Both the position numbers and the translations under genes were made by a program. A DNA stretch of 42,618 nucleotides from a virus (taxonomy: Duplodnaviria > Heunggongvirae > Uroviricota > Caudoviricetes), in IMG/VR virus record IMGVR_UViG_2529292830_000018; one strand, 5' to 3'. Positions 1 to 5,603 of this stretch are shown here, piece after piece; the stretch's first letter is position 1, and every line of letters starts with the position of its first letter. The notes beneath the pieces were generated by a model. That model was not told the DNA's origin. It did not search any database and was given only the letters and a program-made list of their open reading frames with translations.

Positions 1-1158
1 ATGCTCACCGTTAAGCAGATTGAAGCAGCAAAGCCGAAAGAAAAACCATACCGCCTACTCGATGGTAATGGCCTGTACCTTTATGTCCCTGTATCAGGGA
101 AAAAGGTATGGCAGCTTCGCTACAAGATTGACGGTAAGGAGAAAATCCTGACTGTCGGAAAATATCCGCTAATGACTTTGCAGGAGGCAAGGGATAAAGC
201 ATGGACTGCGAGGAAAGACATCTCGGTTGGCATCGATCCGGTAAGGGCGAAAAAGGCTTCGTCTAACAACAATTCCTTTAGTGCGATTTACAAGGAATGG
301 TACGAGCACAAGAAGCAAGTCTGGTCAGTAGGCTATGCAAATGAACTTGCAAAAATGTTTGACGACGACATTTTACCTATCATCGGCGGCCTTGAAATTC
401 AGGATATTGAGCCGATGCAACTGCTGGAAGTAATCCGCAGATTTGAAGATCGAGGTGCAATGGAGCGAGCCAACAAAGCCCGCAGAAGATGCGGCGAGGT
501 TTTCCGTTACGCTATTGTCACTGGTAGGGCTAAATATAACCCGGCACCTGACCTTGCTGACGCCATGAAGGGATACCGCAAGAAGAACTTCCCGTTTCTT
601 CCAGCAGACCAGATCCCGGCATTCAACAAAGCACTTGCAACATTTTCAGGAAGTATCGTATCGCTCATTGCGACCAAAGTTTTACGCTACACAGCCCTAA
701 GAACGAAAGAGCTTCGTTCCATGCTATGGAAGAACGTCGATTTTGAAAACAGGATTATCACCATCGACGCCAGTGTGATGAAGGGCCGCAAGATTCATGT
801 AGTACCGATGTCAGACCAGGTGGTTGAACTTCTCACTACGCTAAGCTCAATCACCAAACCAGTATCAGAGTTTGTTTTTTCCGGGCGCAACGATAAGAAA
901 AAGCCAATCTGCGAGAACGCGGTATTACTTGTGATCAAACAAATCGGCTATGAGGGTCTGGAAAGCGGTCACGGATTCAGGCATGAATTCAGCACGATTA
1001 TGAACGAGCACGAATGGCCTGCTGATGCTATTGAAGTGCAACTGGCACATGCCAACGGCGGTTCTGTGCGTGGAATTTACAACCATGCTCAGTATCTCGA
1101 TAAACGCAGAGAAATGATGCAATGGTGGGCGGACTGGCTTGATGAAAAGGTGGAGTGA
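1..1158 (+). CDS. int: Tyrosine recombinase / prophage integrase (P4/IntS-type)
   Basis: 385-aa ORF; N-terminal MLTVKQIEAAKPKEKPYRLLDGNGLYL and C-terminal catalytic region (HGFRHEF...RGIYNHAQY) typical of P4-family integrases; recalled as closely similar to E. coli CPS-53 IntS. Identity from memory, not searched. Confidence 0.9.
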   Translation: MLTVKQIEAAKPKEKPYRLLDGNGLYLYVPVSGKKVWQLRYKIDGKEKILTVGKYPLMTLQEARDKAWTARKDISVGIDPVRAKKASSNNNSFSAIYKEWYEHKKQVWSVGYANELAKMFDDDILPIIGGLEIQDIEPMQLLEVIRRFEDRGAMERANKARRRCGEVFRYAIVTGRAKYNPAPDLADAMKGYRKKNFPFLPADQIPAFNKALATFSGSIVSLIATKVLRYTALRTKELRSMLWKNVDFENRIITIDASVMKGRKIHVVPMSDQVVELLTTLSSITKPVSEFVFSGRNDKKKPICENAVLLVIKQIGYEGLESGHGFRHEFSTIMNEHEWPADAIEVQLAHANGGSVRGIYNHAQYLDKRREMMQWWADWLDEKVE

Positions 1159-1427: not shown

Positions 1428-3173
1428 GTGGGGATTTTTTTACTAGGCCGCAAGTTCGAAGGATCAAGCTTACTTTTTGATAAGGGACGCTTAATTTTAC
1501 AGAACAGCGTTGATGGAAATGTCTTCCTTGTAGTTGAGAAAGGAGGAAATCGAGCGTTTCTTCATACTGGTGAAAAATTTATAGATTTTGTTAGAGTTGG
1601 GCACTTGTCACATTTGAAATGCTATCTCTCACGTGAGAGCGACAGACTTTTATACTGCGTTTCATCATTAGGTGATGCTATTGAGAAGACAGTAACAGCA
1701 AACAGAACAAAAGCAAGTGGATGGGAAACATTTGATATGCTTCCTGCAAAAGACTTAAGCGAATCATCCATTAATCAAATAGAAATGCTTAAGGGAATAT
1801 ATTTTAAAAATGATGACTTAACATCTGTTTTCAACAGAATTGTTAGATCAGATTTGATTGACAAAGGAAGAACGATTGAAAAGCTAATTGAAATAATGAG
1901 CATCGACGATAAGGCATATATCTCTTATCATCTATCTAAAAACATCAGTGAATTAGCAACGCTTTCTGATATTTCAGGTGATGCGCTATTTAAAGCATTT
2001 GTTTCAAACCTAACCAACTACAGCAAAAAAATATCCGTCATAGATGAAAAACTTGATTTTTTATCTAAGCTTTCGAACCCAATCATTTCTAAAAACAGCT
2101 GGGTTGAACTAATTCATAATTTAAGAAAAATATCTCCACCAAAACATAAATCATGCATTGTTGCAACATGCAAAAATGAAGGTGTTTATCTTGTTGAGTG
2201 GATTGCTTACCATCTAAGCATTGGATTTGATGCAATATTTATATATTCTAATGATAATGATGATGGTTCTGACGAACTACTTAATAACCTTCATAATGAA
2301 GGAATCATATACTACATAAAAAACATTGTTGGAGATGGTGTTAGTGCACAAAACAAGGCTTATGCTCATGCACTAACAATTAACAAGGAAGTTCTAAATT
2401 ATGAATGGAGTCTTTTCATTGATATAGATGAATTTTTTGTTTTAAACGAATTCATGTTTTCTTCCATCACTGATTATCTAGACTGGCAAAACAAAAATGA
2501 AACTGACGCAATTGCTTTAAACTGGATGTTTAGCAAACCAGTTGAAAATAGCGACTGGATAAACAATCCAATCACTAAAAGATTGCCATATACTAATAAA
2601 GAAGCAAGCGCTCATATCAAAACATTTTTTAAGCCTCACAAATTCTCAGGCTCAACACCTCATTTCCCATTGTGCAATAGCAATTATAAGTTCGCATATA
2701 GAGACTCTTCAGGTAACATTCATGAAAAGTCAATCACAAAAAATGATTTATCATTTTCTAACAAACCACAAAACTCACACGCTTACATTATTCATTACTT
2801 CAATAGAAGTATAGCTGAGTTTATTTGGAAATACTCTAAAAACAGAGGTGATCACCCAAACACTAAAAGCGGAAACGACTTTACAGAACACTTATTTCAG
2901 TTCCTTAACTTCTTCACATCATCATTAGACTCACCACGGTTCGTGGAGAATGAATCAATTGCTAAAATGACTGGTGTTATTGATTCAAAAATTAGCGAAA
3001 TATTAGCAATCGAATCGATACAAATTGCGTATGAGAATGTTAAGAACAGGACAAGAGAGCGTTATGAATTAATCGAGCCTTTATTTTGGGAGTATTTAAA
3101 GGAAAACATCAACTCAGAAAAAAATAAAGACTCAATTTCAGAGTTTATATCTAGATTTAACGAAAAAGCTTAA
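1428..3173 (+). CDS. Glycosyltransferase-like protein (GT92/DUF23-like central domain), strongly AT-rich
   Basis: 581-aa uninterrupted ORF in very AT-rich DNA; motifs CIVATCKNEGVYLVEWIAYHLSIGFDAIFIYSNDNDDGSDELL and LFIDIDEFF resemble GT-A glycosyltransferases of the GT92 type. Track start is GTG at 1428 preceded by GAGGGG; true start uncertain. Confidence 0.5.
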   Translation: MGIFLLGRKFEGSSLLFDKGRLILQNSVDGNVFLVVEKGGNRAFLHTGEKFIDFVRVGHLSHLKCYLSRESDRLLYCVSSLGDAIEKTVTANRTKASGWETFDMLPAKDLSESSINQIEMLKGIYFKNDDLTSVFNRIVRSDLIDKGRTIEKLIEIMSIDDKAYISYHLSKNISELATLSDISGDALFKAFVSNLTNYSKKISVIDEKLDFLSKLSNPIISKNSWVELIHNLRKISPPKHKSCIVATCKNEGVYLVEWIAYHLSIGFDAIFIYSNDNDDGSDELLNNLHNEGIIYYIKNIVGDGVSAQNKAYAHALTINKEVLNYEWSLFIDIDEFFVLNEFMFSSITDYLDWQNKNETDAIALNWMFSKPVENSDWINNPITKRLPYTNKEASAHIKTFFKPHKFSGSTPHFPLCNSNYKFAYRDSSGNIHEKSITKNDLSFSNKPQNSHAYIIHYFNRSIAEFIWKYSKNRGDHPNTKSGNDFTEHLFQFLNFFTSSLDSPRFVENESIAKMTGVIDSKISEILAIESIQIAYENVKNRTRERYELIEPLFWEYLKENINSEKNKDSISEFISRFNEKA

Positions 3174-3238
3174 TCGATTTTCTGCGGAGGTAATCCACCT
3201 CCGCTATTTTCTAATACATTGTGTGATTTACAATATTT

Positions 3239-5503
3239 TCATGTCGATGAGTTAATTTCCTCAATGATACGCTTCAGGATTTCATTATTTCTGCGTTGTA
3301 ATGCAGCTTCAAGGACTAAAGCCTCTTCATAACGAATACCATAACGTGAGCCTGCCGGAGTGACCAGAATATCTTCATATTCTGGTTCTGCCTCTTCTTC
3401 ATACTCTTCTTCTACTTCTTGAAACTCTGTCTCGATGTACTCCTCTTCTACATCTTCAACTACAGGAACGCTTACGAATGGATTTTGCGCAAAAGGTGAA
3501 CCATCTTCATTAAGAACAGGTATCATTTCCATTTTTGGAGTCTGATACTCTTCATTCACTACTCGTTTAATCCGTGTTCCGTCTTCCAGTACCTCATCCT
3601 TTAATACCTGACGACTCTCAGTAACCATCACTGGTTTGCTTACAATTCGAGTTTTAGTAACCTGCACTGGAACTGTTGTTATGCGAGTTTTAGTAACCAT
3701 TACACCTTCGTTTGTCTGAACCTTAGTATATTGATCATCCCACTCGTCAAAGCAAAAGAATCCAAATCGGTGCACATCAAGCCCATGACGTTCAAACGCC
3801 TCCTTTGCACGTTGAGCTATTACGCCAAAATGCCAACGAGCTCCGTCTTCCCCTTTTTCTTCTGTTCTGTCAAGATACTGAAATTGAACGAAGTCAACCT
3901 CTGACCATGCGTCAAGTATTGTATCAGTGATTTCAAGAGGTGCAGTTTTAGCTCGCTCATCTGAAGTAACGGTAAAGGCTGTTTGAGTGAATCCACCAGA
4001 CCACACACGACCAGCAGTTCCGACCGTGCTGTTACTGTTCTGTGATAATGGTGCAATAGATGAGTCTACTATTACAATGCCATCCCCTTTTGGAGATAGC
4101 CTCAAATGAATATCTTTATCGCTTCCAGCAACGCCAACAGCAGGAGCATTAGATTCTGTATGCGAGCGCATGGATAGATAATTGGCAGGAACTGTAGGCC
4201 CAGACTCTATGGCAAATATAGGCAACCCAGACGATAATCGTGTAAATACTACGCCATTATCACTAAATAACATTCTGGTTGATCTGGTTGCATCCTCCAA
4301 AACAGAGAGTATTTCAGAAGTTTTCTGATTTAAATTGTTGTACCAGGTCATTGAGTGCCTATTACCAAAAGCAATTGCCACACCTTGACCTGTTGATTCT
4401 CCATCGGTTCCTTTAAGGCTATTACTGCCAAATACGATGCCCTTCAGAAAGCGCGCTGTTTTCCCAGCAGTTTTGTCGTTAGCTATTATTCCAATTGCTG
4501 CCGATGCAGCATTCAACACTTCTCCAGCTTGGGTTAATTCACCACCTGAGCCTAACCATAATGCGTCAGTCTGACCGTTGGGGAACATTGAATTAGGATA
4601 CATTTCACGCTCATTCCCCCTGTTTGCTATATCAAGTTCAAGACCGTGACTTGCTCCTATTGTTCCTGCATTGCGTATAGCTGAACCGTACAAGGCCCAC
4701 ACACTTGATCGTGAGCCAGATGTATCATCGTTTATCGCAGTACCTGCCACCCCTAATGCAGCACCGCCTGCACCACCGAGGGCAGTGTGTGCCGACCCGT
4801 AAACACCTATGCCGTCAGGTGGCGCAATAAATGTATTTCTACAGTGTCTTTCGAGATAGTAAAATATATTATTACCTACACCTGACAACCAAGGTACCTG
4901 ACGCAGCCAGTATCCACCTATAAATGAAACCCCCATCTCCATTTCCCATGATGTAAGGGGATCAGACACTACATCTTGGGTTAGTTTGTATGTGCCCGCT
5001 GGGATATAAATTTTACTTTTCGTGGCATTGGCAGCCAGAAACGCCGCAGTTGAATCAAGCACACCAGTAGGATCAGCACCTCCTGCAAAACCACTCCAAG
5101 TAACAGGCTTTGCTAATCCTCCGACAAATCCAGCTCCACCAGGACCCTCCAGTTCAGATCGCAGTTGATCAGGGTCATACTTCAGCACATTAGGAAAATA
5201 GAACTGCTGCGCACCATATGCATCATAAACAGCCATAGAATGGCCTTGCACAGTTACAAACTTGGCAATCTGTCCGTTATATACCGGATATCCAGCAGCG
5301 TTAATGATGATTGGTTGCGATACAGGAACGTGAGAGCCGTCTTCGTTCTCCACATAAACCTGAATCTGGTTTTCAGGATTTACCGGGTCAGTGTCAATTT
5401 TACCGATATAAATCTTTCCATTAGCTACGGCTTTAAAAGAACGAGCCATAGTGAAGAGTTGCGAAGGCATGCTGACTATAACATTGGCTGTAATGTCTGT
5501 CAT
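3239..5503 (-). CDS. Tailspike protein: P22 gp9-like head-binding N-terminus, distinct central domain, C-terminal S74-type intramolecular chaperone domain
   Basis: N-terminus [61 protein letters not shown] matches the P22 tailspike head-binding domain from memory; C-terminal ~150 aa ([15 protein letters not shown]...[10 protein letters not shown]...acidic tail) resembles the autoproteolytic chaperone domain of endosialidase/L-shaped fibre proteins. Confidence 0.85.
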
Positions 5504-5561
5504 TTAATTTGCTCCAGATACAAGGAATCGCCGTAGCATGGCTACGGTGAATTTTGGGCAT

Positions 5562-5584
5562 AAAAAAACCCAGCCGAAGCTGGG
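5562..5584 (-). terminator. Rho-independent terminator downstream of ant
   Basis: Stem CCCAGC/GCTGGG with loop CGAA, followed on the minus strand by a run of 7 T. Confidence 0.6.
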
Positions 5585-5603
5585 TCGTTGCGTTGGTTAT
5601 CTG

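Follow-up and report, generated by a model that had tools for sequence, protein, structure and literature searches.

Tailspikes determine which hosts a phage can infect and have found use as glycan-specific enzymes and diagnostics, and a spike that combines a familiar virion anchor with a receptor module of an uncharacterised family raises the question of how it was assembled, what its receptor module does and how it matures. We addressed this question for the tailspike gene of a 42,618-nucleotide stretch of viral DNA (IMG/VR virus record IMGVR_UViG_2529292830_000018, Caudoviricetes; hereafter the window, at its full length). According to the list of open reading frames (ORFs) and the translation, the interval 3239–5503 given in a preliminary description of this DNA coincides exactly with a 754-codon ORF; the gene lies on the minus strand, which that description had left unstated. 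An exact-sequence look-up retrieved an identical public protein (WP_005759975.1 / EMW58090.1, ‘phage tailspike protein [Escherichia coli]’). The explanation that we find best overall, and hold to be likely, is that this is the tailspike gene of a CUS-3/Sf6-like prophage (Lederbergvirus, P22-type) integrated beside intS, and that its product is a mosaic of three cassettes. The data show its domains, conserved motifs, mosaic joints and distribution directly; its cleavage, its activity as an enzyme, its receptor and the part played by an insertion in its chaperone are inferred.

A gene built from three cassettes

The three-part chimera proposed in the preliminary description was recovered by both Pfam and Protein Data Bank (PDB) alignments, as an N-terminal Head_binding domain, a distinct central region and a C-terminal Peptidase_S74 domain. 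Head_binding (PF09008) matched over its full length (1–113/113, E = 6.6e-67), and chains of P22 gp9 (2XC1 and 8TVR) and of Sf6 gp14 (7SG7) aligned with residues 1–118 only. This anchor had been called near-identical to that of P22 gp9, a description that needs correction, since its identity to P22 is 74% and it is nearer to Sf6 gp14 (89%) and to the CUS-3 tailspike (95%). An N-terminal Head_binding domain and a P22-like tail gene context, the two marks of a P22-type tailspike, are both present, and residues 1–113 would dock the trimer onto a P22-type tail. The tailspikes of P22, Sf6 and HK620 (gp9, gp14 and gp9) carry the homologous domain at the same genomic position (74–89% amino-acid identity), but they have no S74 domain, and their receptor-binding β-helix enzymes show no sequence match to residues 119–513. 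The P22 tailspike is not C-terminally processed.

At the nucleotide level, the gene ceases to resemble other tailspike genes at nt ~338–379, inside a conserved linker; the HK620 gene, ~93% identical over this part, matches nt 1–335 only. The junction motif (residues 114–145) is common to the tailspikes P0005–P0009 of our comparison set, which are otherwise unrelated in anchors and receptor domains. Like the ‘boundary sequences’ of the CUS-3 annotation, the motif probably serves as a recombination hotspot.

Cassette exchange is seen directly in the occurrence of the same central domain behind different N-termini. At 75–85% identity it occurs behind at least four other anchors, and with the recurrence of the same chaperone behind other central domains this bears out the domain shuffling that had been suggested. 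P0012 joins it to a Tail_spike_N anchor in an SU10-like podophage (locus L006), P0002 places it in the baseplate module of a contractile-tail phage (locus L008), P0034 has a P2-type fibre N-terminus, and P0017, which lacks an S74 domain, has a different Head_binding anchor. Distant members of the central-domain family are also located in phage tail modules, and the family moves between podovirus and myovirus tails. Towards the 3′ end of the gene, nucleotide similarity restarts at nt 1577 (residue 526, just beyond the predicted cleavage site) and stops at nt 2217 (residue 739), and the chaperone cassette so delimited is found again, ~94% identical, behind other central domains, with a second mosaic joint suggested inside the terminal helix.

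The layout as such was already known, because the experimentally characterised endosialidase tailspike of CUS-3 (siaK1, ABQ88383.1, CP000711), an E. coli K1 prophage, has the same one: Head_binding (1–113), a non-rhamnosidase catalytic module and Peptidase_S74. The two proteins are 95% identical over the first 124 residues, and their genes share a neighbourhood with ant and mnt/arc upstream. They align at their ends only, as the CUS-3 catalytic module consists of an endosialidase β-propeller and stalk domains unrelated to the central domain here, and the CUS-3 chaperone (~164 residues, 34% identical) has no counterpart of the 105-residue insertion described below. The present protein differs from the known architecture in having a receptor module of an uncharacterised family and a long-tentacle variant of the chaperone; in other respects it illustrates well-known cassette exchange and will not surprise specialists.

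The central receptor-binding domain

The region between anchor and chaperone had been put at ~450 residues unrelated to the P22 endorhamnosidase. Its separateness stood, as its sequence matched neither the P22, Sf6 and HK620 enzymes nor any known endorhamnosidase, while its size is ~400 residues (114–513), the final ~35–50 of which form a conserved pre-cleavage stalk of the kind that accompanies S74 domains. Residues 146–480 comprise a pectate-lyase-like N-terminal cap, a conserved core and a β-rich C-terminal subdomain. In the search for a pectate-lyase-like β-helix that the preliminary description had proposed, PF12708 matched the cap only (residues 142–178), below its cutoff (16.6 versus 27 bits), and some members of the family exceed that cutoff. 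In a PDB profile search, the cap matched β-helix glycanases, lyases and epimerases (E values from 1e-7 to 4e-4). Searches of PHROGs and NCBIfam found no model covering the central core.

The domain belongs to a large family. A word-indexed search of 5.8 billion proteins returned few relatives, a count that understates how common the domain is, since the same search missed the 89-member cluster of the query itself, whose exact sequence was part of the collection. A profile search gave ~30 relatives, and an exhaustive one, run against 1.84 billion cluster representatives, gave 2743 with E ≤ 1e-3 and 153 with E ≤ 1e-30. These 2743 representatives include no characterised member, and their core is not covered by any Pfam family, PHROG or solved structure; knowing the substrate of this one spike would allow many phage proteins to be annotated together. 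In the 50,697 phage records searched, tblastn with the central domain gave only a partial match of 29% identity, to a Stappia phage tailspike.

Conservation among 134 diverse family members is centred on Glu289, which is 100% conserved, with Tyr272 at 99% and Asp259, Arg277, Asp291, Asn294, Glu322, Lys354, His383 and Trp387 each at 74% or more, a pattern that suggests an active site. With moderate confidence, we regard the domain as most likely a β-solenoid polysaccharide depolymerase with acidic candidate catalytic residues around Glu289. Residues ~146–480 would then set host range, through a surface glycan other than those of P22, Sf6, HK620 and CUS-3. An AlphaFold 2 (AF2) model of the domain, computed from a 134-sequence alignment, had a mean predicted local distance difference test score (pLDDT) of 72, and of ~50 over the conserved core. 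Profile self-comparison detected no significant internal rung repeats in the core segments, which counts against a solenoid.

The structural neighbours of the model were weak, and the best of them was the adhesin PfbA. Together with the lack of any catalytic family assigned by Pfam, PHROGs or NCBIfam, this would be in keeping with a non-catalytic adhesin that, like PfbA and some fibre tips, binds a glycan or protein without cleaving it. We consider such a role rather improbable, as an invariant Glu amid conserved Asp, Tyr, Arg, His and Lys in 134 divergent proteins looks more like an active site than a variable binding surface, and the remaining structural neighbours are mostly glycanases and lyases. 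Short-tailed phages of the P22 type, moreover, generally need to cut through the glycan layer. A depolymerase remains our preferred assignment. Identification of the central domain as a diverged K5 lyase was considered on account of the K5-lyase-like chaperone and rejected, only the last stalk residues being alignable.

Residues ~436–480 (4064–4198, minus strand) form one copy of a ~70-residue unit, ‘...VNYL...GSDxNIDLxLxPKGxG’, which is covered by no Pfam family. The unit recurs in giant proteins, with 23 matched stretches in P0043 (3033 residues), 13 in P0088 and 11 in P0073.

The S74 chaperone and its insertion

Peptidase_S74 (PF13884) scored 54.6 bits over residues 514–575 (cutoff 22; E = 1.3e-14), confirming the S74 assignment made earlier; the domain is 241 residues long and not ~150, owing to the 105-residue insertion. 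Chaperone-bearing PDB structures aligned from about residue 460 onwards, the matches comprising 3GUD (E = 2e-18) and 3GW6 (E = 3e-17) as well as 9VVR, 6EU4, 7Y5S and 4UW8, and the stalk aligned with the pre-cleavage stalks of K1F endosialidase (3GW6), tailspike 9VVR, 6EU4 and K5 lyase (2X3H, 494–542). The Ser–Lys dyad expected of such a domain was found in the motif SDERAK, which begins at residue 514: Ser514 (codon 3962–3964) aligns with K1F position 911, an Ala in the S911A crystal construct 3GW6, and Lys519 (codon 3947–3949) aligns with Lys916. In the same structure, Thr513 aligns with the preceding Thr and Arg499 with the stalk Arg. The GA-1 chaperone 3GUD, which begins SDERHK, aligned from its first residue. 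A C-terminal strand and coiled-coil helix (...LEAALQRR, residues 717–739) align with 9VVR, 3GUD and 3GW6, and AF2 placed a helix over residues 725–753.

The chaperones of K1F (3GW6), the GA-1 neck appendage (3GUD) and T5 pb1 (4UW8) thus have in common with this protein a Ser–Lys dyad, a −1 Thr, an Arg sensor, an α/β body and a C-terminal helix. The closest chaperone cassettes are those of 9VVR and of the K5 lyase (KflA) of phages K5 and K1-5, with the S74 body and terminal helix ~74% identical in amino acids; these proteins have other N-terminal anchors and catalytic domains, are without the insertion, and match in two pieces that skip residues ~595–700.

At the level of sequence, every feature that defines the S74 family is present, and autoproteolytic cleavage is predicted between Thr513 and Ser514, with products of 53.9 kDa (mature spike) and 28.0 kDa (released fragment). 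In the mechanism proposed for S74 proteins, Lys activates Ser, an Arg of the neighbouring chain ties cleavage to correct trimer folding, and the chaperone leaves afterwards (PMC4690869); the Thr at −1 and the stalk Arg have been described, for T5 pb1 and K1F, as oxyanion and folding-sensor residues (PMC4690869). Applied to this tailspike, the chaperone (514–754) would nucleate trimerisation from the C-terminus, and after the stalk has folded, Arg499 of the neighbouring chain would complete the site, at which Ser514 and Lys519 would cut Thr513–Ser514, freeing the 28-kDa fragment from a mature spike of 54 kDa.

The insertion is a clean addition in alignments with the close relatives P0034 and P0012, flanked by ...VQTNEG on one side and EPEY... 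on the other. Counted from the Ser, chaperones of the collected family have 116–160 residues without it and 241–246 in the few proteins that possess it. Its N-terminal half is basic and Thr-rich with two VTKTRI repeats, while the C-terminal part is strongly acidic and ends in a Glu/Tyr run; its isoelectric point is 4.3, and the net charge is −17 over the wider stretch of residues 594–712. It begins at chaperone residue 88, at the position taken by the β-hairpin ‘tentacle’ in the solved chaperones, including those of K1F, GA-1 and T5. The T5 tentacle spans chaperone residues 69–108, and tentacle length varies widely between phages and among solved chaperones (PMC4690869). Whereas solved tentacles have ~40 residues (T5) or somewhat more (K1F), the equivalent segment here has ~128.

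In an AF2 model of the full-length monomer, computed from a 29-sequence alignment, long β-strands ran over residues 602–704 (pLDDT 63–77); the mean pLDDT of the model was 60.5, too poor for a fold search. From this model and the position of the insertion, it is most likely a greatly lengthened, acidic β-hairpin tentacle, which may reach along the receptor domain during folding and leave with the chaperone. Three points weigh against this reading. The structure of the insertion comes from this one low-confidence monomer model; the charges of its arms are unbalanced, the 29-residue basic arm (residues 596–624) carrying +4 and the acidic arm (residues 682–712) −18, so that a simple charge-zipper hairpin is not fully supported; and the insertion could impair cleavage instead of aiding folding.

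The insertion might also be baggage without a part in folding, either neutral or mildly deleterious, such as a loop expansion that is tolerated. The S74 chaperone does not end up in the virion, and constraints on it are relaxed. The wide variation in tentacle length would suit such an origin, as would the short chaperones of close relatives of the same central domain (P0001, P0002, P0010 and P0012) and the acidic stretch itself, which is of low complexity with short DNA repeats. Yet the insertion has been kept in frame, occurs in Leclercia adecarboxylata proteins at 52–57% amino-acid identity and in a more diverged form in P0031, and travels with several different central domains: its DNA was found in 14 of the 5426 complete E. 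coli genomes searched, at 98–100% nucleotide identity and behind different central domains. Compared with the Leclercia gene, the insertion and the flanking chaperone body are both 56% identical in amino acids, and synonymous sites have reached saturation; for this reason the ratio of non-synonymous to synonymous substitution rates (dN/dS) is not computable for this pair, and dN and amino-acid identity are the usable measures. On balance, we regard neutral baggage as possible but doubtful, and retain the lengthened tentacle as the preferred reading.

A tblastn search with the insertion alone found no match in the phage records, and no described long-tentacle S74 variant was found in the literature. 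Such a chaperone is well suited to testing what portion of a spike an S74 chaperone must contact. A bolder proposal, joining chaperone and receptor module, is that the insertion forms a β-ribbon of more than 100 Å along the whole receptor domain, acting as a removable pro-segment that templates depolymerase folding and, as a polyanionic substrate mimic, blocks the active or binding groove until Thr513–Ser514 is cut, the central domain itself being a structurally new, widespread, Glu289-centred depolymerase family. Taken as a whole, this proposal is speculative, and we think it unlikely.

Genomic setting, distribution and the receptor question

The window is a P22-like prophage with an apparently complete gene set of ~42 kb. 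Its gene order runs from the integrase IntS (1–1158, plus strand) through a family-2 glycosyltransferase (GT2) gene and the tailspike gene to an antirepressor, Arc-family regulators, a P63C protein and ejection proteins, so that the tailspike neighbours include ant, arc/mnt, gp7- and gp20-like ejection proteins and the integrase. An equal gene arrangement adjoins tRNA-Arg in E. coli ATCC 43886, and several E. coli assemblies carry WP_005759975.1 with the same neighbour genes. The features of the locus are collected in Table 1.

Table 1. Coordinates of the tailspike gene, its segments and the convergent glycosyltransferase gene in the window
Feature	Position	Strand	Basis
Complete tailspike coding sequence	3239..5503	-	754 aa + stop
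Head-binding (virion-anchor) domain, P22-type, aa 1-113	5165..5503	-	Pfam PF09008
Linker and junction motif, aa 114-145, 5' mosaic boundary	5069..5164	-	Nucleotide similarity end point
Receptor-binding, presumed depolymerase domain of an unnamed phage-tailspike family, aa 146-480	4064..5068	-	Profile search
Pre-cleavage stalk, aa 481-513, ending in Thr513 and holding Arg499	3965..4063	-	Alignment to solved stalks
Peptidase_S74 intramolecular chaperone, aa 514-754 (241 aa)	3242..3964	-	Pfam PF13884
In-frame 105-aa insertion in the chaperone, aa 601-705	3389..3703	-	Clean indel versus P0034 and P0012
GT2, 581 aa, convergent with the tailspike gene	1428..3173	+	Pfam PF13704, PF01697

Split or truncated tailspike genes occur at related degraded-prophage loci, for example in the strains QML220614 and PK8276, which raises the possibility that the gene studied here is likewise part of a decaying prophage remnant, its product no longer assembling or cleaving. 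This we judge highly improbable: the intact ORF is preceded by a ribosome-binding site (GGAG ~10 nt 5′ of the ATG), it lies within the apparently complete gene set, near-identical intact copies exist in several assemblies, and all catalytic residues have been kept.

One of the degraded loci, L012 (E. coli QML220614, NZ_CP132061.1, 1425632–1433058), is a prophage remnant with the same integrase, the rare GT2 gene and the long chaperone cassette. Its tailspike locus has a different central domain, and the head-binding part is a separate pseudogene fragment.

The tailspike gene was matched by 1139 of the 5426 E. coli genomes, mostly over the first ~340 nt only. The whole gene, at ~99% identity, was present in only three of them, ATCC 43886, E2528-C1 and the O25:NM strain 2014EL-1343-2. 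These O25 strains of enterotoxigenic E. coli (ETEC) have genomes almost equal in size and probably represent one clonal O25:NM lineage. At 90% identity, the cluster around WP_005759975.1 comprises 89 E. coli members. Alleles in this cluster have unrelated C-terminal tails after ...LQRRN, the last ~15 residues of the present protein (3242–3286, minus strand) standing against NYQKALSRIEMIEMRENI or NNNRLVACLKVMDNVTED in others.

As regards the receptor, the GT2 gene next to the tailspike gene may hold a clue. Its GC content is 33%, compared with 46% for the window; the product has no predicted membrane segment, and its N-terminal ~245 residues matched no family. The gene is present in only four of the 5426 complete E. 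coli genomes, three of which carry this tailspike, and no homologue was found in the 50,697 phage records. It looks like a candidate lysogenic-conversion moron for modification of a surface glycan, linked to the tailspike. It occupies the place that O-antigen-modifying genes have in P22-like phages, an analogy that mildly favours an O-antigen as the receptor.

The strain ATCC 43886, which we take to be O25:K98:NM, provides a lead towards O25 and is treated as a lead only, not as evidence. The evidence on the receptor is weak, and the O25 association was likewise kept as no more than a weak lead because the three complete carriers look like a single clonal lineage; a literature search found no P22-like O25 tailspikes. 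Assignment of a substrate might yield a reagent for the O25/K98 ETEC lineage that carries the gene.

Three further observations concern the immediate surroundings of the tailspike gene. A GC-rich, terminator-like hairpin (3184–3204, plus strand) lies in the 65 nt that separate the tailspike gene from the convergent GT2 gene. A second such hairpin (5567–5586, minus strand) follows the upstream ant gene and precedes the tailspike start. Antisense to the head-binding part runs a 123-residue ORF (5165–5536, plus strand), which is most likely spurious.

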